This document shows positions 6,218-45,699 of a DNA stretch of 64,000 nucleotides, piece after piece. Position numbers and translations under genes: made by a program. The stretch comes from Candidatus Poribacteria bacterium (GTDB taxonomy: Bacteria > Poribacteria > WGA-4E > WGA-3G): the NCBI GenBank assembly GCA_964291315.2, contig OZ219753.1, forward strand, positions 2,688,001 to 2,752,000. The letters run 5' to 3'. Below the pieces are notes generated by a model, which worked only from the letters and a program-made list of their open reading frames with translations, ran no database searches and was not told where the DNA came from. How positions within the stretch are numbered: the first letter of the stretch is position 1; the number at the start of each line of letters is the position of its first letter.

Positions 6218-6344
6218 TATTATATGTGCCTTTCAAGAACTTTAGCGTAACGTAAACTCGATGTAGTGCAGCCAGATCTATATGTATATGGATTGAATCT
6301 ATGCACCACCGCGTGCCCAAAATGTAGCTTGTTCTTACGTAATG

Positions 6345-8315
<1,971 letters not shown>

Positions 8316-35626: not shown

Positions 35627-36412
35627 TTGAACTCGGAATTTACAGAACAGCAACGGCAAGGGTTGGAATCGATGGAACAATTGCTGCCGAAGCTGGTATC
35701 AATGGAGCAAGAAATGTCTGCTTTGCGTGAGCTGTTTACAAAGCAGCTCGCCCGCAACCAGCGGCATCAGCAGATGTTCGACGCGGTCTATAAAGAAATG
35801 AAAGCGTATAAGGATGACAGATTCCGTGAAATATTTCACAAACCTGTTATCAATAACTTAATTCGACTCTACGATAACTTTAAGGAGGTAGAATCACAAC
35901 TGCGGGACCTCAAAGAGGTGTCCGGAGCTGATGGATCAGAGGTTAACATCGGTGACCTCATCGTATCTGTTTTTAACGATAGGCCCGAAAAAGAGCAGAA
36001 GAAACTGCTTAAGCAGGTTAAGTCTGCAAGGTCTGTTAAAAGTTTAGCAGAAAGACTGCAATCCATTCAGGAAAACTCTAAAGAGGTTCAACCAAAGTCT
36101 CAGGTGGGCCTGTCTCAATTTCAGAAGAATTTGGAAAACGTCCGTGTTCAATTGGAAGAGGTGTTATGTCGCATGGAGGTTACCCCTTATACCGAGCATC
36201 CAGAGAGACTTAATATGGAAATGCACCAAACCGTTGACACGATAGAGACCGATGACCCTGATAAGGATGAAGTCGTCGTTGAGATACGTAAGTCTGGATT
36301 CAAGTGGCGTGAACAGATATTTCGCCTAGAAGAGGTGATAATCTACCGCTATAAATCCGCTACAGGGGAATCGTCAAAAACAGTTGACGAAAAGTCAACA
36401 AAAGGAGAATAA
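35627..36412 (+). CDS. grpE: GrpE-like nucleotide exchange factor
   Basis: Coiled-coil N-half; C-terminal LNMEMHQTV...VVEIRKSGF.W....FRLEEV (GrpE beta domain); AGGAGG RBS; directly upstream of Hsp70. Confidence 0.8.
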   Translation: MNSEFTEQQRQGLESMEQLLPKLVSMEQEMSALRELFTKQLARNQRHQQMFDAVYKEMKAYKDDRFREIFHKPVINNLIRLYDNFKEVESQLRDLKEVSGADGSEVNIGDLIVSVFNDRPEKEQKKLLKQVKSARSVKSLAERLQSIQENSKEVQPKSQVGLSQFQKNLENVRVQLEEVLCRMEVTPYTEHPERLNMEMHQTVDTIETDDPDKDEVVVEIRKSGFKWREQIFRLEEVIIYRYKSATGESSKTVDEKSTKGE

Positions 36413-36416
36413 ACTG

Positions 36417-38042
36417 ATGGGTAAAGTTGTTGGTATCGATTTAGGCACGACCTTTTCTGCGATCGCACACGTTAACGACTATGCACAAGCAGAAATTGTC
36501 CCGAATAAGCAGAATGAGCGCACTACGCCCTCCGTGATACTATTTCAAGACGATAATGTTGTCGTTGGGAAAATAGCCAAGGCTCAGGCAAAGGCGATGC
36601 CCGAACAGATCGTCGAGTTCGTCAAACGCGAGATGGGGAAACAGAAGGGAGCCGGTGAAAACGAATTTTGCCGTGAGTTTAATGGCAAATCATATTCGGC
36701 TGAAGAACTCTCCGCACAGATTTTGCTAAAACTTAAACAGGATGCGGAGGCACATCTTGGCACAGAGATCACTGACGCTGTCATTACAGTCCCGGCCTAT
36801 TTCAAAGACGCGGAGCGGAGTGCCACACGACTCGCTGGGGAAATTGCCGGACTGAACGTCTTACAAGTTGTCAATGAACCGACCGCCGCCGCGCTCGCTT
36901 ACGGTCTTGATCTACAGAACAGCGGTCAGACCGTGTTCGTCTTTGACCTGGGTGGTGGAACGTTCGACGTAACGATCATGAAGGTCTCCGGTTCGGAGTT
37001 AAGAATGATTGCGACGGATGGAGACAGCCGCCTCGGTGGGAAGGACTGGGACGATGAAATAATTAAGTATGTTGCTGAGAAATTCGAAATAGAGCACGGT
37101 TCCAATCCCTTAGACGACAACTACACGTATCAAGATATCCAATCTGAAGCTATTCAAGCAAAGGAACATTTGACAGAACTTGAAACAACACGCATCGTTT
37201 TCAACTACGAAGGTAAGAGTAGTAATGTGGAGTTGACGCGTGAGAAGTTTGAGGAACTCACTGCAGATCTCCTTGGGAGGTGTAGGGCCACGTGTGAACA
37301 CGTTCTCTCAGAAGCCAAAATGACGTGGGAAGATATTAATACGGTGTTGTTGGTTGGTGGTTCCACCCGGATGCCGATGGTGCGAAAGATGATTGCTGAG
37401 ATCAGCGGTAAAGAAATTAACCCGACGGAGGTCAATCTAGATGAGGTGGTTGCACACGGGGCTGCTATCTATGGAACCCTCCGCCAGATTGAGGAGGTGA
37501 TAATTGACAAAACTTCTGAAACAGCCACGGAAGAAGATATTTCGGAAGCTGTCAAGGATAAGTTCATCAATGATTCTGACGAAACCGTAATAGCGGTGTT
37601 TGATCGCGCCACACATAACCTTGGATTGACTGTAAGCAAAACAGTCGATAAAAAAAGGAAGGTATACACTCATGTGATGATTCCCAAAATGACCCCCGTT
37701 CCATGTGAGATAACAAGAGATTCGTTTGGAACACTAGAGGACAATCAACAAGGTGTCTTAATCAATGTTTTTCAGGGACTCGAACATAACAAACTTATAG
37801 AGGAAATACCTGACTTTGAAAACCATAGAATAGGTAAAACCACCCTTAAACTACCGCCTAACTTACCGAAAGGAACTCCCATTAAAGTTACCTTTGAGTA
37901 TAACCGTGATCAAACGCTTGAGGTAACTGCGGAGGGACCTAATAATAGTAGCATAGATATAACGATTGATCGTAAGACCCTCAATAAAGAGCAAGTTACT
38001 GAAGCAACCACAAACCTCCAAGAAAATTTGAAGGTTAAATAG
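36417..38042 (+). CDS. Hsp70/DnaK-family protein, short paralog lacking the helical lid
   Basis: GIDLGTT, TVPAYF, NEPTAAA, FDLGGGTFD, LVGGSTRMP; ends at ~541 aa. Confidence 0.95.
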   Translation: MGKVVGIDLGTTFSAIAHVNDYAQAEIVPNKQNERTTPSVILFQDDNVVVGKIAKAQAKAMPEQIVEFVKREMGKQKGAGENEFCREFNGKSYSAEELSAQILLKLKQDAEAHLGTEITDAVITVPAYFKDAERSATRLAGEIAGLNVLQVVNEPTAAALAYGLDLQNSGQTVFVFDLGGGTFDVTIMKVSGSELRMIATDGDSRLGGKDWDDEIIKYVAEKFEIEHGSNPLDDNYTYQDIQSEAIQAKEHLTELETTRIVFNYEGKSSNVELTREKFEELTADLLGRCRATCEHVLSEAKMTWEDINTVLLVGGSTRMPMVRKMIAEISGKEINPTEVNLDEVVAHGAAIYGTLRQIEEVIIDKTSETATEEDISEAVKDKFINDSDETVIAVFDRATHNLGLTVSKTVDKKRKVYTHVMIPKMTPVPCEITRDSFGTLEDNQQGVLINVFQGLEHNKLIEEIPDFENHRIGKTTLKLPPNLPKGTPIKVTFEYNRDQTLEVTAEGPNNSSIDITIDRKTLNKEQVTEATTNLQENLKVK

Positions 38043-38066
38043 GGAAAAGCGTTGGTAACAGCTGCT

Positions 38067-38110
38067 GTGTCACAAGGTGAGGTTGTTGCCGCACCCTTAC
38101 CTTGTGACGC
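38067..38110. other. intergenic stem-loop
   Basis: GTCACAAGGTGAGG-N12-CCTTACCTTGTGAC. Confidence 0.6.
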
Positions 38111-38140
38111 GCATCCCCCTAATTGCAAAAGGAGTAGTAG

Positions 38141-39229
38141 GTGTCTAAACGAGATGATTTTACCACTATCATTAAAACGTTGAAAAAAGCATTGCCTAGT
38201 ATTACCGATGACCAATATAAAAGGTTGGTCAGGCAAGGCATGCATGACTACGGACTCTCCCAGGATGAGGCAGAGCGGATCATCAAAAAAGAGGTAGGCC
38301 TGATTATTGGGAAAGTGGTAAATCATTTTCAGGAGTTAGGGCTCACAATTGATGACCTGAAAAACCTGAGTGAAGACGAAATCGAAAAACTTGTTCAGGC
38401 TAAGTATGATCTCCTTTATAAGCAGGCAAGAATTAGCGCCAATCCCAGGAATGCTGAGAAACAGGCAGCGTTGAATGCGGCAAGGGATACGCTACTTGAT
38501 CCACAGAGGCGGCAGGAACACATTCAACTCCTTGAGCGGCAGAAAACGTCTTCCAACACCGAGGATGGAAACTCTCAGAAACGCAGTAGCACAGACGTGA
38601 GAGCTATCTTCAAGTTCGGGAAGGTAGCGGCTATTTTAGCAATTCTTGCTTTTCTGCTCTTATTGGGACTTGGACTTGATAACATTATCAAAAATTCGAA
38701 AACACAACCCCACGCTACAGAATTCCAAGAAGGCAAGCCTGCAACCGTACTACGCGCACGTCGTACTGGGGCAGGCACAACGGGCTCGCCAGCAAAGCCT
38801 CAGATCGATCCCACAACGGTGGTGGCCGTTATTGAAACGGCAAAGGGCACTATTGAATTTGAATTTCTTGCAACTGAAGCACCCGAAACTTCCAAGAATT
38901 TCATTAAGAACGCCCAAGTCATGTATTATAAAGGCGAGAAGTTTAATCGCGCAGAAGAACTTCTCGTCCAAGCAGGATCGAATCTCGCCGCCGGAGACAC
39001 ACTTCCAATTGAGAACGGTTCGCAACAGATGTCGCGGGGCGTTGTCGCCCTAGCGAAAGAAGAAGGGGCGAGTGTCTCCTATGTGTCAGAATTCTTTATC
39101 TGTCGAGGCGATGTTATTCTTGACAGTGATTACACCATTTTCGGAAACGTCGTCAGCGGTATGGAGGTCGTTGACAGAATCACCGTTGGCGACGCAATTA
39201 TGAACATTACTATTCGAGAGAAAGAGTAA
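38141..39229 (+). CDS. J-domain-like / TM / cyclophilin-type PPIase fusion protein
   Basis: NHFQELGL...LNAARDTLLDPQRRQEH (J-like, no HPD); TM VAAILAILAFLLLLGLGL; IETAKGTIEFE..APETSKNF..YTIFGNVVSGMEVVDRI. Confidence 0.8.
   Translation: MSKRDDFTTIIKTLKKALPSITDDQYKRLVRQGMHDYGLSQDEAERIIKKEVGLIIGKVVNHFQELGLTIDDLKNLSEDEIEKLVQAKYDLLYKQARISANPRNAEKQAALNAARDTLLDPQRRQEHIQLLERQKTSSNTEDGNSQKRSSTDVRAIFKFGKVAAILAILAFLLLLGLGLDNIIKNSKTQPHATEFQEGKPATVLRARRTGAGTTGSPAKPQIDPTTVVAVIETAKGTIEFEFLATEAPETSKNFIKNAQVMYYKGEKFNRAEELLVQAGSNLAAGDTLPIENGSQQMSRGVVALAKEEGASVSYVSEFFICRGDVILDSDYTIFGNVVSGMEVVDRITVGDAIMNITIREKE
38246..38724 (+). repeat. near-identical direct repeat, copy 1 (J-like + TM module)
   Basis: Matches 40549-41027 with only about 2 differences seen by eye. 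Confidence 0.9.
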
Positions 39230-39240
39230 TGGATATCGGC

Positions 39241-39288
39241 TAGCAGTTAGCAGATAGCGGTTGGCAAATCAGAAACTGCTAACTGCTA
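39241..39288. repeat. heptamer-based inverted repeat
   Basis: TAGCAGTTAGCAG...CTGCTAACTGCTA, perfect 13-bp arms. Confidence 0.7.
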
Positions 39289-39361
39289 AGACCGATTTGT
39301 GAAGTTTATGTTTTTTCGAACTCTCGTTTAATTGTATATTTTGTTATAAATGGAGGCATAT

Positions 39362-39568
39362 ATGTCTTTAACTGTTACTCGAACGGCGCGTCCAAGCCCC
39401 GTCTGGCAGGAAAGTTACGTGCGCGTCAAAAAAGGGCAACGTCTCATTATTGATGCAGAGGGCGCGTGGTCCCCGGATCTGCAAAATCGGACCGGATGGT
39501 GCGGCGGAGATGGGGTGCCTAAGACCCCAGGCTCCAACGGTTATCTATTACCCGGCACAAATAGTTGA
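39362..39568 (+). pseudogene. truncated N-terminal fragment of a PA-IL/LecA-like lectin-fold protein
   Basis: GGAGG RBS; WQESYVRVKKGQRLIIDAEGAWS...CGGDG...LPGTN, then a stop exactly where the FGE-module linker begins in another frame. Confidence 0.5.
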
Positions 39569-40379
39569 TGAAAACCCTCAAAAATGGAGTAGCAGAGACA
39601 CGCAAGCCCTCGACACCGCAGTCTCAGGGATGGTATTGATCCCATCGGGCACCTTTCGGATGGGCAGCACCACAGGCGATGCCAATGAACGCCCTGTTCA
39701 CACTGTCACTTTAGATGCGTTTTATATGGATACACACGAAGTAACAAACGCAGAATACGTCAAATTTCTCAATGCTATGGGCAGACATGCAAATGCCGGC
39801 CGTCCATGGCTGGCTATCTGGAAGAGTGGTGTGCGCATTGAGCGTTTAGGTGGAACGTATCGCCCAAAGGCGGGGTATGCGGATCATCCTGTTGTTCATG
39901 TGAGCTGGTATGGTGCGATGGCTTATGCTGCCTGGGTAGGCAAGCGTCTGCCGACCGAGGCGGAGTGGGAGTATGCCGCACGCGGTGGGTTAGCAGGGAA
40001 GGAATATCCTTGGGACGACACGATTGACAGCACGCGGGCAAACTACAACGATAATGTCGGTAGTACGACAGCAGTTGGCAGTTATGATGCGAACGGGTAT
40101 GGTCTGTATGATATGGCGGGGAATGTCTGGGAATGGTGTCTGGATGCGTACAACAAACACTTCTATACCATTTCATCTGCCTGTAATCCGCTATCGGGGC
40201 CGTCCAGGATTGATTGGTTATTGAGAAACTATACAAATGTTGAGTCTAATCGCGTCTTGCGTGGCGGATCTTGGTACAGTACAGCGCAAAAGGTACGAGT
40301 TGCCTATCGCTACAAATCTTCTCCTGCGCGCACGAACGTCAGTGTCGGTTTTCGTTGTGCAAGTTCTGTATCCGCTTGA
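39564..40379 (+). CDS. orphan FGE-sulfatase/SUMF1 (C-type lectin fold) domain; headless module, possible internal ATG at 39630
   Basis: MVLIPSGTFRMG, RLPTEAEWEYAARGG, GLYDMAGNVWEWC, RVLRGGSW...GFRC. Confidence 0.8.
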   Translation, partial: VDENPQKWSSRDTQALDTAVSGMVLIPSGTFRMGSTTGDANERPVHTVTLDAFYMDTHEVTNAEYVKFLNAMGRHANAGRPWLAIWKSGVRIERLGGTYRPKAGYADHPVVHVSWYGAMAYAAWVGKRLPTEAEWEYAARGGLAGKEYPWDDTIDSTRANYNDNVGSTTAVGSYDANGYGLYDMAGNVWEWCLDAYNKHFYTISSACNPLSGPSRIDWLLRNYTNVESNRVLRGGSWYSTAQKVRVAYRYKSSPARTNVSVGFRCASSVSA

Positions 40380-40443
40380 ACCTTTACTTTACTCCCTGTG
40401 GCACAGATGGACAGTTTATGCTACAGATTATAAGGAGTAGCAC

Positions 40444-43400
40444 ATGTCTAAACGAGATGATTTTACCATTTTTATTCAGGGATGGAAAAAAGCTGCCCCT
40501 AATATTACTGTTGACCAATACAAAGGGTTAATCAGGCAAGGCATACACGACTACGGACTCTCCCAGGATGAGGCAGAGCGGATCATCAAAAAAGAGGTAG
40601 GCCTGATTATTGGGAAAGCGGTAAATCATTTTCAGGAGTTAGGGCTCACAATTGATGACCTGAAAAACCTGAGTGAAGACGAAATCGAAAAACTTGTTCA
40701 GGCTAAGTATGATCTCCTTTATAAGCAGGCAAGAATTAGCGCCAATCCCAGGAATGCTGAGAAACAGGCAGCGTTGAATGCGGCAAGGGATACGCTACTT
40801 GATCCACAGAGGCGGCAGGAACACATTCAACTCCTTGAGCGGCAGAAAACGTCTTCCAACACCGAGGATGGAAACTCTCAGAAACGCAGTAGCACAGACG
40901 TGAGAGCTATCTTCAAGTTCGGGAAGGTAGCGGCTATTTTAGCAATTCTTGCTTTTCTGCTCTTATTGGGACTTGGACTTGATAACATTATCAAAAATTC
41001 GAAAACACAACCCCACACTACAGAATTTGTTGATGATTCGCCGAAGGGGTCTTCGGGCACCGCAGCAATCTCAGAGAGGTCTGCATCCTCTACACAGCAG
41101 GAAACTTCTTCCAGCACGGACGATGGAAACCGACAGAAACGCAATAGCAGAGACGCGCTAACCCCCGAACCCCCAGTCTCAGGGATGGTATTGATCCCAT
41201 CGGGCACCTTTCGGATGGGCAGCACCACAGGTGATGCCAATGAACGCCCTGTTCACACTGTTACTGTAGATGCGTTTTATATGGATACGCACGAAGTAAC
41301 AAACGCACAATACGCCGATTTTCTTAATGCTATGGGCAGACATGCAGATGCGGGTCATACGTGGTTGGCTCTCGGTAGCCGTGGTGCACACATTGAGCGT
41401 TTAGGTGGAACGTATCGCCCGAAGGCGGGGTATGCGGATCATCCTGTTGTTCGTGTGAGTTGGTATGGTGCGATGGCATATGCGAAGTGGGCAGGCAAGC
41501 GCCTGCCTACCGAGGCGGAGTGGGAATACGCCGCACGCGGCGGCGAGTCGGGTCTGAAGTATCCCTGGGGAAACACGATTGACAGCACACGGGCAAACTA
41601 CGACAGAAATGTCGGTGAGACGACAAGAGTAGGGCATTATGGTGCAAATAGCTATGGTCTGTATGACATGGTCGGAAATGTCTATGAATGGTGCTTAGAT
41701 GCATATAATAGAGACTCCTATGCCAGTTATCCTGCCCGTAATCCGCTATCGGGTGCGTTTAGTATTCATTGGCTATCAGATAATTATACAGAGATTAAGT
41801 CTAGACGCGTCTTGCGTGGCGGATCTTGGCTCAGTGAAGCTCAGTACGTGCGGGTCGCCAACCGCTTTGACTATACGCCGACGAGCACGTCCCTCTTCAC
41901 AGGCTTTCGTTGCGCAAGGTCTGCATCCTCTACACAACAGGAAACCCCTCCCAGCCCGGACGATGAAAACCCTCAAAAATGGAGTAGCAGAGACGCGCAA
42001 CCCTCCGACCCATCAGTCTCAGGGATGGTATTGATCCCATCGGGCACCTTTCGGATGGGCAGCACCACAGGTGATGCCAATGAACGCCCTGTTCACACTG
42101 TTACTGTAGATGCGTTTTATATGGATACACACGAAGTAACAAACGCACAATACGCGGACTTTCTTAATGCTATGGGTAGACATGCAGATGCGGGTCATAC
42201 GTGGTTGGCTCTCGGTAGCCGTGGTGCACACATTGAGCGTTTAGGCGGAACGTATCGTGTGAAAGCAGGGTATGCGGATCATCCTGTTGTTCGTGTGAGT
42301 TGGTATGGTGCAATGGCATATGCGAAGTGGGCAGGCAAGCGTCTGCCGACGGAGGCGGAGTGGGAGTATGCTGCGCGCGGCGGCAAGTCGGGTCTGAAGT
42401 ATCCGTGGGGAAACACGATTGACAGCTGGCATGCGAACTACGACAGAAATATCGGTAAGACAACAAGAGTAGGGCATTATGGTGCAAATAGCTATGGTCT
42501 GTATGACATGGTCGGAAATGTCTACGAATGGTGCTTAGATGCATATAATAGAGACTCCTATGCTAGTTCTCCTGCTCACAATCCAGGTACGTTTAGTATT
42601 CAGTGGCTGTTAGATAATTATACAGAGATTAAGTCTGACCGCGTCTTGCGTGGCGGCTCCTGGGCCGGTTCAGCATGGCTCGTGCGTGTTGCCAATCGTG
42701 GCAGCTTTTCGCCTTGGATAACGGGCGCCGGCCTCGGTTTCCGTTGTGTAAGGTCTGTATCTCTTACGCGGCAGGAAACACCTCCCAGCCCGGATGATGA
42801 AAACTCTCAAAAATGGAGTAGCAGAGACGTGCTAACCCCCGCCCCCCCAGTCTCAGATATGGTATTGATCCCATCGGGCACCTTCCAGATGGGCAGCACC
42901 ACAGGTGATGCCAATGAACGTCCTGTTCACACTGTTACTGTAGATGCGTTTTATATGGATACGCACGAAGTGACGAACGCAGAATACGCCGCGTTCCTCA
43001 ATGCGAAGGGAAAACACACAGACGCTGGCAAGACTTGGTTGTTTATCGGTAGCAGTGGTGCACGCATTGAGCGTTTAGGTGGAACGTATCGCCCAAAGAC
43101 AGGGTATGCGGATCATCCTGTTGTTTATGTGAGCTGGTATGGTGCGATGGCGTATGCGAAGTGGAAGGGCAAGCGGCTGCCGACGGAAGCAGAGTGGGAA
43201 TACGCTGCTCGCGGCGGATTAGCAGGCAAACTTTATCCCTGGGGCGACACCGTAGACTCCAGCCGTGCGAACTATGATTGGAACGTCGGTAGGACAACGG
43301 CAGGCGGTGCGTATGCTGCGAACGATTACGGTCTGTATGATATGGTCGGAAATGTTTCGGAGTGGTGTCTGGATGCGTATGATAGCGCCTTCTATACCAG

Positions 43401-45282
43401 TTATCCTGCCCATAATCCGCTATCGGGTGCGTCTAGTATCCAGTGGCTGTTAGATAATTATACAGAGATTAAGTCTGACCGCGTCTTGCGTGGCGGCTCC
43501 TGGGCCAGTTTAGCAGGGCTTGTACGGGTTGCCAACCGCAGTAACTTTTCGCCTGGGGTAACGAGCTCCGTCTTCGGTTTCCGTTGTGTAAAGCCTGTAT
43601 CTCTTACGCGGCAGGAAACCCCTCCCAGCCCGGACGATGAAAACCCTCAAAAATGGAGTAGCAGAGACGCGCAACCCTTCGACACCGCAGTCTCAGGGAT
43701 GGTATTGATCCCATCGGGCACCTTTCGGATGGGCAGCACCACAGGTGATGCGGATGAACGCCCTGTTCACACTGTCACTTTAGATGCGTTTTATATGGAT
43801 ACATACGAAGTGACGAACGCAGAATACGCCGATTTTCTTAATGCTATGGGCAGACATGCCGATGCGGGTCATACGTGGTTAAATATGGATAGCGGCGGTG
43901 TACGCATCGAGCGTTTGGGCGGAACGTATCGTGTGAAAGCGGGGTATGCGGATCATCCTGTTGTTCATGTGAGTTGGTATGGTGCAATGGCATATGCGAA
44001 GTGGAAGGGCAAGCGCCTGCCTACCGAGGCGGAGTGGGAGTATGCAGCACGCGGCGGCAAGTCGGGTCTGAAGTATCCCTGGGGAAACACGATTGACAGC
44101 ACGCATGCAAACTACGGCAGAAATGTCGGTAAGACAACAAGAGTAGGGCATTATGGTGCAAATAGCTATGGTCTGTATGACATGGTCGGAAATGTCTATG
44201 AATGGTGCTTAGATGCATATAATAGAGACTCCTATGCTAGTTCTCCTGCTCACAATCCTGGAGCGTCTAGTATTCATTGGCTATTAGATAATTATGCAAA
44301 GGTTGAGTCTCAACGCGTCTTGCGCGGCGGATCTTGGCTCAGTGAAGCTCAGTACGTGCGGGTCGCCTACCGCAACTACTATACGCCGACGAGCACGTCC
44401 TTCTTCACAGGCTTTCGTTGTGCAAGGTCTGCATCCTCTACACAACAGGAAACCTCTTCCAACACGGACAATAGAAACTATCAGAAACGTAGCAGCAGAG
44501 ACGCGCAACCCTCCGACCCATCAGTCTCAGGGATGGTATTGATCCCATCGGGCACCTTTCGGATGGGCAGCACCACAGGTGATGCGGATGAAAGCCCTAT
44601 TCACACTGTCACTTTAGATGCGTTTTATATGGATACACACGAAGTAACAAACGCAGAATACGCGGATTTTCTTAATGCTATGGGCAGACATGCAGATGCA
44701 GGCCATACATGGCTGGCTATCTGGAAGAGTGGTGTGCGCATTGAGCCTTTAGATAGAACGTATCGTGTGAAAGCGGGGTATGCGGATCATCCTGTTGTTC
44801 ATGTGAGTTGGTATGGTGCGATGGCGTATGCTGCGTGGGCGGGCAAGCGCCTGCCTACCGAGGCGGAGTGGGAATATGCCGCACGCGGCGGCAAGTCGGG
44901 TCTGAAGTATCCGTGGGGAAACACGATTGACAGCACGCAGGCGAGATACGCTAGAAAGACCCGTAGTCCGACAGCGGTAGGGCGTTATGCTGCGAACGGG
45001 TATGGTCTGTATGATATGGTCGGAAATGTCTGGGAGTGGTGTCTGGATGCGTATGACAAAAACTTCTATACCATTTCACCTACTTCTAATCCGCTATCGG
45101 GCGCGTCTAGTATTCAGTGGCTGTTAGATAATTATGCAGAGATTAAGTCTAGACGCGTCTTGCGTGGCGGCTCCTGGGAAAATACAGCGGGAAACGTGCG
45201 GGCCGCCTTCCGCTTTTATGATACGCCGACGAGCACGTTCCCCGTCACCGGTTTCCGTTGTGCAAGGTCTGTATCGCCTTGA
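40444..45282 (+). CDS. J-like / TM / 5x FGE-sulfatase (CLec-fold) protein; probable DGR-type variable protein
   Basis: Same N-terminal module as the 38141 gene; five domains starting at 41185, 42025, 42859, 43699, 44533, each ending in RVLRGGSW...GFRC. Confidence 0.93.
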   Translation: MSKRDDFTIFIQGWKKAAPNITVDQYKGLIRQGIHDYGLSQDEAERIIKKEVGLIIGKAVNHFQELGLTIDDLKNLSEDEIEKLVQAKYDLLYKQARISANPRNAEKQAALNAARDTLLDPQRRQEHIQLLERQKTSSNTEDGNSQKRSSTDVRAIFKFGKVAAILAILAFLLLLGLGLDNIIKNSKTQPHTTEFVDDSPKGSSGTAAISERSASSTQQETSSSTDDGNRQKRNSRDALTPEPPVSGMVLIPSGTFRMGSTTGDANERPVHTVTVDAFYMDTHEVTNAQYADFLNAMGRHADAGHTWLALGSRGAHIERLGGTYRPKAGYADHPVVRVSWYGAMAYAKWAGKRLPTEAEWEYAARGGESGLKYPWGNTIDSTRANYDRNVGETTRVGHYGANSYGLYDMVGNVYEWCLDAYNRDSYASYPARNPLSGAFSIHWLSDNYTEIKSRRVLRGGSWLSEAQYVRVANRFDYTPTSTSLFTGFRCARSASSTQQETPPSPDDENPQKWSSRDAQPSDPSVSGMVLIPSGTFRMGSTTGDANERPVHTVTVDAFYMDTHEVTNAQYADFLNAMGRHADAGHTWLALGSRGAHIERLGGTYRVKAGYADHPVVRVSWYGAMAYAKWAGKRLPTEAEWEYAARGGKSGLKYPWGNTIDSWHANYDRNIGKTTRVGHYGANSYGLYDMVGNVYEWCLDAYNRDSYASSPAHNPGTFSIQWLLDNYTEIKSDRVLRGGSWAGSAWLVRVANRGSFSPWITGAGLGFRCVRSVSLTRQETPPSPDDENSQKWSSRDVLTPAPPVSDMVLIPSGTFQMGSTTGDANERPVHTVTVDAFYMDTHEVTNAEYAAFLNAKGKHTDAGKTWLFIGSSGARIERLGGTYRPKTGYADHPVVYVSWYGAMAYAKWKGKRLPTEAEWEYAARGGLAGKLYPWGDTVDSSRANYDWNVGRTTAGGAYAANDYGLYDMVGNVSEWCLDAYDSAFYTSYPAHNPLSGASSIQWLLDNYTEIKSDRVLRGGSWASLAGLVRVANRSNFSPGVTSSVFGFRCVKPVSLTRQETPPSPDDENPQKWSSRDAQPFDTAVSGMVLIPSGTFRMGSTTGDADERPVHTVTLDAFYMDTYEVTNAEYADFLNAMGRHADAGHTWLNMDSGGVRIERLGGTYRVKAGYADHPVVHVSWYGAMAYAKWKGKRLPTEAEWEYAARGGKSGLKYPWGNTIDSTHANYGRNVGKTTRVGHYGANSYGLYDMVGNVYEWCLDAYNRDSYASSPAHNPGASSIHWLLDNYAKVESQRVLRGGSWLSEAQYVRVAYRNYYTPTSTSFFTGFRCARSASSTQQETSSNTDNRNYQKRSSRDAQPSDPSVSGMVLIPSGTFRMGSTTGDADESPIHTVTLDAFYMDTHEVTNAEYADFLNAMGRHADAGHTWLAIWKSGVRIEPLDRTYRVKAGYADHPVVHVSWYGAMAYAAWAGKRLPTEAEWEYAARGGKSGLKYPWGNTIDSTQARYARKTRSPTAVGRYAANGYGLYDMVGNVWEWCLDAYDKNFYTISPTSNPLSGASSIQWLLDNYAEIKSRRVLRGGSWENTAGNVRAAFRFYDTPTSTFPVTGFRCARSVSP
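40549..41027 (+). repeat. near-identical direct repeat, copy 2 (J-like + TM module)
   Basis: Matches 38246-38724. Confidence 0.9.
41098..45282 (+). repeat. tandem intragenic repeat, 5 units of 834-840 bp
   Basis: GTCTCAG(G/A)ATGGTATTGATCCCATCGGGCACCTT-type start recurs with periods 840/834/840/834. Confidence 0.95.
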
Positions 45283-45699
45283 TTCTGAATCGCAGATGAA
45301 ATCGACGAAAGGCGCGGAAAATACAATCCGGGGCGTGATGGCAGGTAGCCTTCTACTGACGACTATCACCCCCCTTTATTTATCGCTGGCTCTCTATCTT
45401 TAGAATGGAACCTCCTATTCCCGGCCACACATTATACCCTCCCCCCGGCAAAACAGCCCTCATGAAACCCTACTGAGACGCATTAAATACTGAAACGGAC
45501 AAAACAGAGCATATCTATAGATGTCATGATCCAACTAAGACGCTGCGCATGTTTAAATTTTTTCCAGAAAACAGTTCGCGAGGCTCAGAGATCCCTCGGA
45601 CAGAAGCTCTGAATGCTCCCTCGTTAGTTTTTTCTATTGCACCTGTTCACACAATATGCTAAATTAAAATGATATTTGAATCCAGAGGAGGACTATTAA

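Follow-up and report, generated by a model that had tools for sequence, protein, structure and literature searches.

Two published reports, in the excerpts compared here, describe DGR targets in which three diversified FGE/CLec domains stand in tandem (PMC5758913, PMC10907252). In Thiohalocapsa PB-PSB1, the DGR 4/5 targets contain three tandem VR-bearing CLec domains per gene and are diversified in trans (PMC10907252). The locus analysed below resembles that system, as excerpted, in combining tandem CLec domains in one ORF, each ended by a variable region (VR), with an RT and a template repeat (TR) elsewhere in the genome; duplicated, partly degraded cassettes and uneven VR activity within one target add to the likeness. 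The Thiohalocapsa VRs match their remote TR perfectly at non-adenine positions, whereas those examined here deviate at 8-13 of 79; diversification there was measured in metagenomes, whereas our array is known from assembled contigs alone; and three domains are combined there with vWA, whereas our array has five and a J-like N-terminus.

Two other described systems, again as excerpted, are similar in part. Cyanobacterial CLec paralogues (PMC7517822) are DGR-diversified CLec modules that have been duplicated and dispersed within the genome, with remote paralogues of graded TR similarity and, in some genomes, duplicate cassettes; they belong to another phylum, have kinase or orthocaspase N-terminal partners, and their matches are reported only near gene 3' termini, whereas four of our VRs are internal. 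The DGR of Treponema denticola (TvpA, up to seven non-adjacent targets) also has FGE-sulfatase-type CLec targets, some of them separated from the RT by hundreds of kb or more, and in one isolate a remote VR fits the TR of another strain better than its own and is, in this sense, stranded; these targets are single-domain, unlike our array (PMC5758913, PMC4891356). The survey rule in PMC5758913, as excerpted, admits only A-to-N differences between VR and TR, with minor exceptions; all six VRs reported here also differ at other sites and fall outside this rule, VR5 and VR2 as borderline cases. Publications already exist on remote targets, on tandem CLec VRs and on graded paralogues. What is new is the example from a Poribacteria-related genome, and no paper on DGRs in Poribacteria or sponge symbionts was found in the literature searched.

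The locus lies in a 64,000-nt stretch of contig OZ219753.1 of a Candidatus Poribacteria bacterium (the window) and comprises two lectin ORFs with the following context:

35627-36412, forward strand: GrpE-like ORF, upstream of the lectin ORFs
36384-38042, forward strand: Hsp70 ORF, upstream of the lectin ORFs
38141-39229, forward strand: 362-aa paralogue of the 1612-aa ORF, 94% identical to it in the J-like N-terminus and also carrying the hydrophobic stretch
39450..40379, forward strand: 309-aa ORF with one FGE-sulfatase/CLec domain (PF03781, E 1.8e-69)
40444..45282, forward strand: 1612-aa ORF with a J-like N-terminus, a hydrophobic stretch and five tandem FGE-sulfatase/CLec domains (PF03781, five stretches)
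40444..40863, forward strand: predicted J-domain-like fold of the first 140 residues of the 1612-aa ORF (pLDDT 89.5)

The upstream same-strand context as a whole spans 35627..39229 on the forward strand, and its 362-aa member has a cyclophilin domain where the 1612-aa ORF has lectin domains. The five lectin domains of the latter are separated by linkers rich in Ser, Thr, Pro and Asp, and its hydrophobic stretch, read by eye, covers residues ~157-179. No Pfam family was found for the N-terminal 250 residues. The predicted structure of the N-terminus points to a J-domain: such domains occupy most of the best 50 ranks of a structure search, at E 0.14 to ~2 and over ~66-82 aligned columns, with none of these 50 at E <= 0.001, and the protein atlas gave a weak lead to a 'J domain-containing' entry (score 0.77). 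The HPD position is not conserved, being NPR in the 1612-aa ORF and RPD in the consensus of relatives. The 309-aa ORF opens with a linker-like sequence, is devoid of an obvious signal peptide or anchor, and may be a truncated terminal domain. Among solved chains, formylglycine-generating enzymes come closest to it (E 1e-38), and TvpA (2y3c) matches at E 2.7e-14.

PF03781 spans each of the six domains as far as the GFRC motif, and every one of these CLec/FGE-sulfatase folds has its VR at the C-terminal end. In an alignment with a solved FGE, the two catalytic cysteines of the enzyme fall within the stretch taken up by the VR; both are absent in the window domains. Each domain is closed by a 112-nt VR, one in the 309-aa ORF and five in the 1612-aa ORF. 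The VRs are given below with their mismatches to the TR identified elsewhere in the genome, where core denotes the 40 non-adenine sites of the mutable part of the VR/TR:

VR1, 40251..40362, forward strand, C-terminus of the 309-aa ORF: 17 of 33 adenine, 13 of 79 non-adenine and 9 of 40 core sites
VR2, 41806..41917, forward strand, internal to the 1612-aa ORF: 19 of 33 adenine, 9 of 79 non-adenine and 3 of 40 core sites; near-copy of VR5
VR3, 42640..42751, forward strand, internal: 25 of 33 adenine, 11 of 79 non-adenine and 7 of 40 core sites; related to VR4
VR4, 43480..43591, forward strand, internal: 22 of 33 adenine, 12 of 79 non-adenine and 8 of 40 core sites
VR5, 44314..44425, forward strand, internal: 18 of 33 adenine, 8 of 79 non-adenine and 2 of 40 core sites; the most TR-like of the six
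VR6, 45154..45265, forward strand, C-terminus of the 1612-aa ORF: 18 of 33 adenine, 9 of 79 non-adenine and 6 of 40 core sites

A preliminary description made from the window had placed six VRs at these starts; a pattern search matches them exactly, the alignment is in register, and the four example codon columns given there are VR codons 29, 30, 23 and 10, with the bases stated. Its proposal that codon positions 1-2 vary and position 3 is steadier holds against the TR: at the 12 AAC/AAT codons of the TR, the third base equals that of the TR in 57 of 72 cases across the six VRs, and the first two bases do so in 48 of 144. The enrichment of differences at adenine columns, also expected there, was found both among the six copies (30 of 33 TR-adenine columns variable vs 25 of 79 others; Fisher p = 4e-9) and in every VR compared with the TR (Fisher p 3e-4 to 5e-10). 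Across the repeat unit, mean pairwise difference is highest in the VR (0.35-0.39, vs 0.02-0.31 in the domain body). Some of the likeness between VRs and TR reflects protein constraint, because codons under strong conservation (RVLRGGSW, GFRC) contribute to the non-adenine sites.

The window was described as lacking both an RT and a TR, and this is borne out. An RVT_1 profile search of the genome gave two matches (79.3 and 78.1 bits), both outside the window and one in each of two cassettes, and among 40 TR-like matches in the genome none inside the window is adenine-rich. The predicted template was to be sought near an RT and Avd, and is indeed found in a bAvd-RT-TR arrangement on contig C3:

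C3 cassette, in order: 463-aa FGE target, bAvd (PF22296), RT (PF00078), TR
C3:31735-31846: intact TR, 112 nt with 33 adenines

The template deduced from the VRs equals this TR at 18 of 20 codons, the misses being at third positions (CCA for CCG, TTT for TTC). On C3, the ORF matching bAvd (PF22296, E 2.2e-21) is 115 aa long and immediately precedes the RT. The RT ORF (352 aa; PF00078, E 2.3e-21) carries IGNLTSQ, presumably the DGR-type RT motif, and is 39-83% identical to 80 RT loci found in other genomes with the same search. Rfam gave 0 matches on the C3 cassette. With RT, Avd and an adenine-rich TR accompanied by a cognate VR, the genome holds a complete DGR. A second cassette, on the window's own contig ~2.2 Mb upstream, is 97.15% identical to the C3 cassette over 3824 nt. 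Relative to the TR, 15 and 23 adenine sites are changed in the two cognate VRs, with 1-2 mismatches at the 79 non-adenine sites and 0 in the core; between the two, 26 of the 33 adenine sites and 3 of the other 79 differ, and the DGR was therefore active after the cassette duplication.

Other lectin domains of the genome provide a scale for the window VRs. We obtained 38 VR-like BLAST rows, tabulated the 31 ungapped ones and left out 7 that were gapped or misregistered, six of which were re-aligned with gaps (C4:2076350 was left out). Six VRs have 0 core mismatches to the TR (C4:494579, C3:227110, C4:500492, C3:33448, C4:501338 and C4:1233679) and C1:562165 has a single one; core mismatches number 9-17 in the 11 paralogues that have diverged most, and 2, 3, 6, 7, 8 and 9 in the window VRs. 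That four of the latter are internal to one polypeptide, as the preliminary description stated, was confirmed; its judgement that this is unusual is weakened by TR-perfect VRs internal to other tandem arrays of this genome (C4:500492, C4:1233679) and by the published tandem targets in the excerpts compared (PMC5758913, PMC10907252).

The TRs of seven Poribacteria records and one uncultured-bacterium MAG differ from the present TR at 4-22 of 79 non-adenine sites (4-15 of 79 for the Poribacteria records alone). The cassette VRs of these relatives carry nearly the non-adenine states of their own TRs, with 0-1 mismatches where counted directly; following their diverged TRs in this way, they indicate that live VRs are held close to the TR by homing. 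Among all these TRs, the genome's own fits best for three of the six window VRs and is tied with that of the nearest relative for two, whereas for VR1 the nearest relative's TR fits better by one site; all other TRs fit worse. A hybrid repeat on contig C4 was tried as a template and rejected, with 15-22 of 92 non-adenine mismatches to the window VRs. Two genomes with the J-like family (G008 and G076) yielded no close TR and no RT. No close orthologue of the array was found among 40 related genomes, where the best matches are ~70% identical, so that orthologous VRs could not be compared.

The window domains bear traces of exchange among themselves. VR2 and VR5 agree at 85% of adenine sites (28 of 33), VR3 and VR4 at 73%, and VR6 with VR2 or VR5 at 55-58%, whereas agreement between pairs of the seven TR-matching VRs averages 0.32 (range 0.19-0.50); the window pairs were therefore copied as DNA and not independently written. 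Core non-adenine states are also shared, by VR3 and VR4 (CCT, xTA, GTA) and likewise by VR2 and VR5. Similarity of the domain bodies is uncorrelated with that of the VRs (Spearman -0.15), and domain 3 is a recombination mosaic that passes from D2/D5-like to D4-like sequence ~60 nt upstream of VR3.

DGR origin of the window VRs is strongly supported. Our preferred reading, to which we assign a probability of about 0.62, is that they are former DGR products that were later copied by DNA recombination, are drifting and are no longer rewritten. All six would derive from the genome's own TR, mutagenized specifically at adenines during retrohoming into the loop region at the C-terminus of FGE-sulfatase/C-type-lectin domains. 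After writing, the domains would have been multiplied and shuffled as DNA by tandem duplication, unequal crossing-over or gene conversion, and ordinary substitutions would have gathered in them with no further overwriting, making the array a set of frozen, recombined ligand-binding variants on one membrane-anchored protein and not a current DGR target. The TR, RT and Avd, the adenine-site bias, the non-adenine decay, the substitutions shared within pairs and the mosaic are observed; how the events followed one another, and that homing into the window VRs has ceased, we infer. The preliminary description had offered remote targets of a trans-acting DGR or stored products of past retrohoming; the stored products are favoured and the live targets less so, because the window VRs have 8-13 of 79 non-adenine mismatches (0-4 in TR-tracking VRs) and include two pairs with shared adenine-site substitutions.

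It is possible, although unlikely, that some or all window VRs, VR5, VR2 and VR6 especially, are live remote targets occasionally rewritten in trans by the C3 cassette, with non-adenine mismatches that are tolerated or fall outside the replaced tract. The RT/Avd/TR cassette is intact and its cognate VRs show activity after cassette duplication; this cassette and the TR-perfect internal VRs make trans-homing into such arrays evidently possible in this genome, and trans-diversified tandem CLec VRs are documented in another organism in the excerpt compared (PMC10907252). Surveys might accept the 2-3 of 40 core mismatches of VR5 and VR2 as 'minor exceptions' (PMC5758913, as excerpted), but the core is overwritten by homing and yet all six VRs have mismatches in it, and the adenine-site states common to VR2 and VR5 persist despite a difference of ~10% between their domain bodies. 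The conserved 3' flank (GGTCTGTATC...) is largely retained in VR3 and VR6, that of VR6 being the nearest among window VRs to the flank of the cognate VRs; against this, every window VR departs in its 3' 16 nt from both the TR and the cognate VRs, at 1-3 of 15 sites (0 from the TR in four cognate-type VRs), and a GC-rich hairpin of 8-11 bp is present after 3 of the 7 TR-matching VRs but after none of the 6 window VRs. Target recognition at the 3' end, by an IMH-like TR match and a downstream hairpin, is known only from other DGRs (PMC3240598, as excerpted). Two runs of one study hold this stretch, both as assembled contigs, in fragmented pieces with heavy paralogue cross-mapping. Four contigs of run X1 span VR1, VR3, VR4 and VR6 with 0 differences, which weighs weakly against live targets, as contigs drop rare variants. 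In one contig of run X2, the final 73 nt of VR6 and the flank downstream, with 2 differences, are linked to another domain body and 25 further letters that do not belong to this locus. Metagenome scans gave 0 matches for an exact 36-nt pattern just downstream of VR6 and, for the J-like N-terminus as protein query, 598 pattern matches, 0 of them confirmed.

Two further explanations place the source of the VRs elsewhere. We consider it improbable that they were never written from this TR lineage, in which case NNC/NNT would be an old family-wide feature of copies that diverged by ordinary mutation under diversifying selection on binding loops. The footprint is partly family-wide and old, because third-position pyrimidines occupy 10-12 of the 12 AAY-equivalent codons in each of the 31 ungapped paralogues, even in those with 20-25 non-adenine mismatches; of 60 genomes sampled from the genus, 18 have the J-like-plus-FGE family and only 6 a DGR RT; in two relatives with both, the J-like-locus domains differ from their own TR at 21-27 of 78-80 non-adenine sites; and differences within the window pairs are only mildly adenine-enriched (5 of 33 adenine vs 3 of 79 other sites for VR2/VR5, 9 of 33 vs 8 of 79 for VR3/VR4). 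Yet the window VRs stand well within the gradient towards the TR, with 2-9 core mismatches vs 9-17 in distant paralogues, they match its choice of C or T at most third positions, they fit best to the own TR or that of the nearest relative, and a template deduced from them alone is nearly the real one. It is very improbable that the VRs are maintained by another TR, accompanied or not by a second RT, that is absent from the assembly (95% complete, 4 contigs). Such a TR could supply the core non-adenine states shared within the two pairs, but copying at the DNA level explains these more simply; no further adenine-rich TR-like segment is present among the 40 genome matches, the only two RVT_1 matches lie in the known cassettes, and the C4 hybrid repeat fits worse.

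The locus illustrates how a DGR template, worked out from nothing but its products, can be traced to a site megabases distant. It is distinctly unlikely that the five-domain protein is a live or intermittently fed trans-target, in which DGR writing is combined with cassette-like recombination between tandem domains. If it were, one membrane-anchored polypeptide with five separately diversifiable lectin sites would constitute a two-tier diversification system, linked, in this sponge-associated lineage, with a dedicated Hsp70/GrpE/J-domain module, and a live array would be the largest multi-VR target, three tandem domains being the maximum in the compared reports, as excerpted. This one genome holds a graded series from TR-perfect to fully decayed VRs, in at least 31 lectin-domain copies, which may be used to ask how long unrewritten DGR products persist and how recombination redistributes them.

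The DGR origin proposed in the preliminary description for six variable regions (VRs) of the window is correct, and their template is present in the same genome. We consider the VRs to be former DGR products that are now frozen, recombined and drifting, and assign this reading a probability of roughly 0.6. The conserved VR start was matched by a pattern search at exactly the six positions originally noted (VR1 to VR6, 112 nt each, at 40251, 41806, 42640, 43480, 44314 and 45154).

Features of the window array
39450-40379, plus strand: 309-aa ORF, one FGE-sulfatase domain (PF03781, Pfam, E 1.8e-69), VR1 at its C-terminal end
40444-45282, plus strand: 1612-aa ORF adjoining the 309-aa ORF, five FGE-sulfatase domains (PF03781, Pfam), VR2 to VR5 internal and VR6 at the C-terminus
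42580-42640: recombination breakpoint in the tandem array, partner change of domain 3

The 309-aa ORF has a TTG start and an opening sequence (39450-39630) resembling the inter-domain linkers of the 1612-aa ORF; no signal peptide or anchor is evident, and stop codons separate it from the cyclophilin ORF. The ORF may represent a terminal domain that was left stranded.

The window corresponds to positions 2688001-2752000 of contig C4. RVT_1 matches were found at only two places in the 4.4-Mb genome, C3:32128-32769 and C4:495366-496007; these and the genome-wide TR-like matches bear out that the window contains neither RT nor template. Both are present in the C3 cassette.

The C3 cassette, in order
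Gene 1: FGE-sulfatase target, 463 aa, VR at the C-terminus
Gene 2: bAvd, 115 aa (PF22296, E 2.2e-21)
Gene 3: RT, 352 aa (PF00078, E 2.3e-21), with IGNLTSQ, which we take to be a DGR-type motif
Element 4, after the RT (C3:31735-31846): template repeat (TR), a 112-nt non-coding repeat with 33 adenines
Last: two more FGE genes, each single-domain

The TR reads TGG AAC AAT ACA GCA CAG AAC ... GCC AAC CGC AAC AAC AAT ACG CCA ACG AAC ACG AAC AAC AAC AAC GGT TTT CGT, and 18 of the 20 codons that had been predicted from the VRs agree with it, both misses being at third positions. The C4 cassette is 97.15% identical to the C3 cassette over 3824 nt, and their cognate VRs differ at 26/33 adenine sites and 3/79 others; thus, the element was active after the cassette duplication. 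The C4 repeat (C4:496289-496400, outside the window; 6290-6401 of the surrounding locus, L034) is a TR/VR hybrid. Throughout the 5' flank and the first 54 nt it is identical to the C3 TR; from position 55 on, 13 adenines are substituted and all non-adenine sites are unchanged, and the 3' flank, of VR type, is in frame with a two-domain FGE ORF of 540 aa into which it continues. Either the TR underwent recombination with an internal VR, or it was itself turned into a homing target; the C4 cassette probably relies on the TR of C3. Between FGE genes near this cassette lie genes for a thermolysin-type M4 peptidase and for emfourin, an M4 inhibitor (L034 8025-9447; C4:498024-499446). In the two single-domain FGE genes that immediately follow the C3 TR, the VRs (C3:29330-29451 and C3:30468-30589, on the minus strand and not in the window) are identical, with one non-adenine mismatch to the TR and one extra codon; the genes are duplicates, their VRs not independently rewritten.

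The six window VRs align to one another without gaps and form the most variable portion of the repeat unit. The variability noted from the sequence is confirmed, and the differences among the VRs are concentrated at template adenines: 30/33 TR-adenine columns are variable, compared with 25/79 other columns (Fisher p = 4e-9), so the variability is not due to chance. The four codon columns originally offered as examples are VR codons 29, 30, 23 and 10, with the letters as quoted.

Mismatches to the TR in each window VR number 17-25/33 at adenine sites and 8-13/79 at non-adenine sites. When the latter were divided into 5' flank (24), mutable core (40) and 3' flank (15), core mismatches from VR1 to VR6 numbered 9, 3, 7, 8, 2 and 6. 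Elsewhere in the genome, six VRs have no core mismatch and C1:562165 has one, and the most diverged paralogues (n=11) have 9-17. Seven gapped or misregistered rows were excluded from the 31-row VR tables, and six of these were re-aligned separately; gapped re-alignment gave 1-3 non-adenine mismatches and a 3-nt insertion in three further cassette-adjoining VRs. Two VRs with no core mismatches, C4:500492 and C4:1233679, are internal in multi-domain ORFs, as linker sequence follows each. The TR has 12 AAC/AAT codons, and at 10-12 of their third positions every one of the 31 ungapped FGE-domain ends of the genome has a pyrimidine, even paralogues with 20-25 non-adenine mismatches; a DGR-type codon footprint, or a constraint mimicking one, is thus family-wide. 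A GC-rich hairpin (3-nt loop, 8-11-bp stem) starts about 42 nt after three TR-matching VRs (downstream of C4:494690, C3:33448 and C3:227221), and was not found after the other four TR-matching VRs or any window VR.

The RT is 78-83% identical to those of seven Candidatus or uncultured Poribacteria records and 65% identical to that of one further uncultured-bacterium locus. The TRs of these eight loci differ from this genome's TR at 4-22/79 non-adenine sites (4-15 for the seven Poribacteria records). At non-adenine sites, the relatives' cassette VRs depart from it in nearly the same way as the TRs of their own loci (by direct count against the own TR, one mismatch in genome G067 and none in G021 and G011), indicating that live VRs stay in step while TRs drift between species. 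The distance of the window VRs from the TR is about that between TRs of different species of the genus. Their best-fitting TR is their own in three cases and tied with the nearest relative's in two; for VR1, the nearest relative's fits better by one site, and all remaining TRs fit the window VRs worse. In related genome G060, only the last 78 RT residues were found (G060:C31:69927-70160; 72% identity, in a 103-aa open frame), apparently a remnant of an RT.

Within the array, the share of adenine sites in agreement is 85% for VR2/VR5, 73% for VR3/VR4, 55-58% for VR6 with VR2 or VR5, and 21-42% for the remaining window pairs, against a reference level of 0.19-0.50 (mean 0.32) among the seven TR-matching VRs. 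Agreement above this level identifies VR2/VR5, VR3/VR4 and, partly, VR6 as DNA copies rather than independent homing products. Similarity of domain bodies and of VRs is uncorrelated (Spearman -0.15). A sliding comparison showed that domain 3 switches from domain 2/5-like to domain 4-like about 60 nt upstream of VR3, with 85-100% identity to domain 2 upstream of the breakpoint and, beyond it and including the VR, 80-93% identity to domain 4, a signature of unequal crossing-over or gene conversion.

Live targeting of the window VRs in trans, for which VR5, VR2 or VR6 would be the most plausible candidates, appears unlikely. Excerpts of PMC5758913 describe remote targets more than 100 kb from the RT, the acceptance of targets with A-to-N differences only, minor exceptions allowed, and one target with three tandem FGE-sulfatase domains, apparently all diversified; in an excerpt of PMC10907252, three tandem CLec VRs diversified in trans match perfectly at non-adenine positions. 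Differences within the copied pairs are mildly enriched at adenines (VR2/VR5, 5/33 vs 3/79 other sites; VR3/VR4, 9/33 vs 8/79), a pattern adequately accounted for by relaxed or diversifying selection on codons of the binding loops, and these later differences are far below the 50-80% turnover from one homing event. The excerpts also report degraded duplicate cassettes (PMC10907252) and dispersed CLec paralogues with graded TR/VR homology (PMC7517822). Our literature search on DGRs in Poribacteria or sponge symbionts and on Poribacteria FGE-sulfatase proteins found no paper on the subject in the collection covered. The array is of a known kind, in a lineage for which no published report was found.

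The stretch is contained in only two runs, both of one study, both in contig form, whose contigs on the array region are fragmented and cross-map between paralogues. Run X2 comes from a second sample that bears the same organism label; one of its contigs (aligned to 40100-40264 and 45193-45400) has a different domain body (25 differences/165 nt) and 25 other letters joined to a stretch, with 2 differences, made up of VR6's final 73 nt and the adjoining flank. This suggests rearrangement of the array from one sample to another, with no change in the 3' part of VR6. Two metagenome scans, with the exact 36-nt pattern just 3' of VR6 and with the J-like N-terminus as protein, gave no confirmed match, and across 40 related genomes the best matches to the array reach about 70% identity, none an orthologous locus.

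Among solved chains, the lectin domains come closest to formylglycine-generating enzymes (E 1e-38); Treponema TvpA (2y3c) matches at E 2.7e-14. In the alignment to the enzyme, the VR replaces a segment with two cysteines, presumably catalytic, and for this reason the domains are probably binding modules rather than enzymes. Tandem FGE arrays occur widely: a threshold of E <= 1e-50 gave 1150 proteins (886-2821 aa) similar to the array, several with 99% coverage of it.

The N-terminal 140 residues of the 1612-aa protein have a predicted fold (pLDDT 89.5) for which J-domains dominate the 50 best ranks, each a weak match (E 0.14 to ~2), none of the 50 reaching E <= 0.001; a hydrophobic stretch, read by eye, follows. 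The J-like domain lacks the conserved HPD, with NPR in the 1612-aa protein and RPD in the relatives' consensus. Of 60 sampled genomes of the genus, 18 have the J-like-plus-FGE family and 6 the DGR RT, one of these as a fragment. In two of those that have both, domains of the J-like locus and the genome's own TR disagree at 21-27 of 78-80 non-adenine sites, so loci of this type do not in general serve as DGR targets. On the strand of the array, its upstream neighbours are a GrpE-like ORF, an Hsp70 ORF and a paralogue that shares the J-like N-terminus but has a cyclophilin domain. Positions 35627-45282 encode, on one strand, GrpE-like and Hsp70 proteins and two membrane-anchored J-like proteins, one with a cyclophilin domain at its end and one with five lectin domains. 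Together they may constitute an Hsp70 module dedicated to extracytoplasmic binding proteins.
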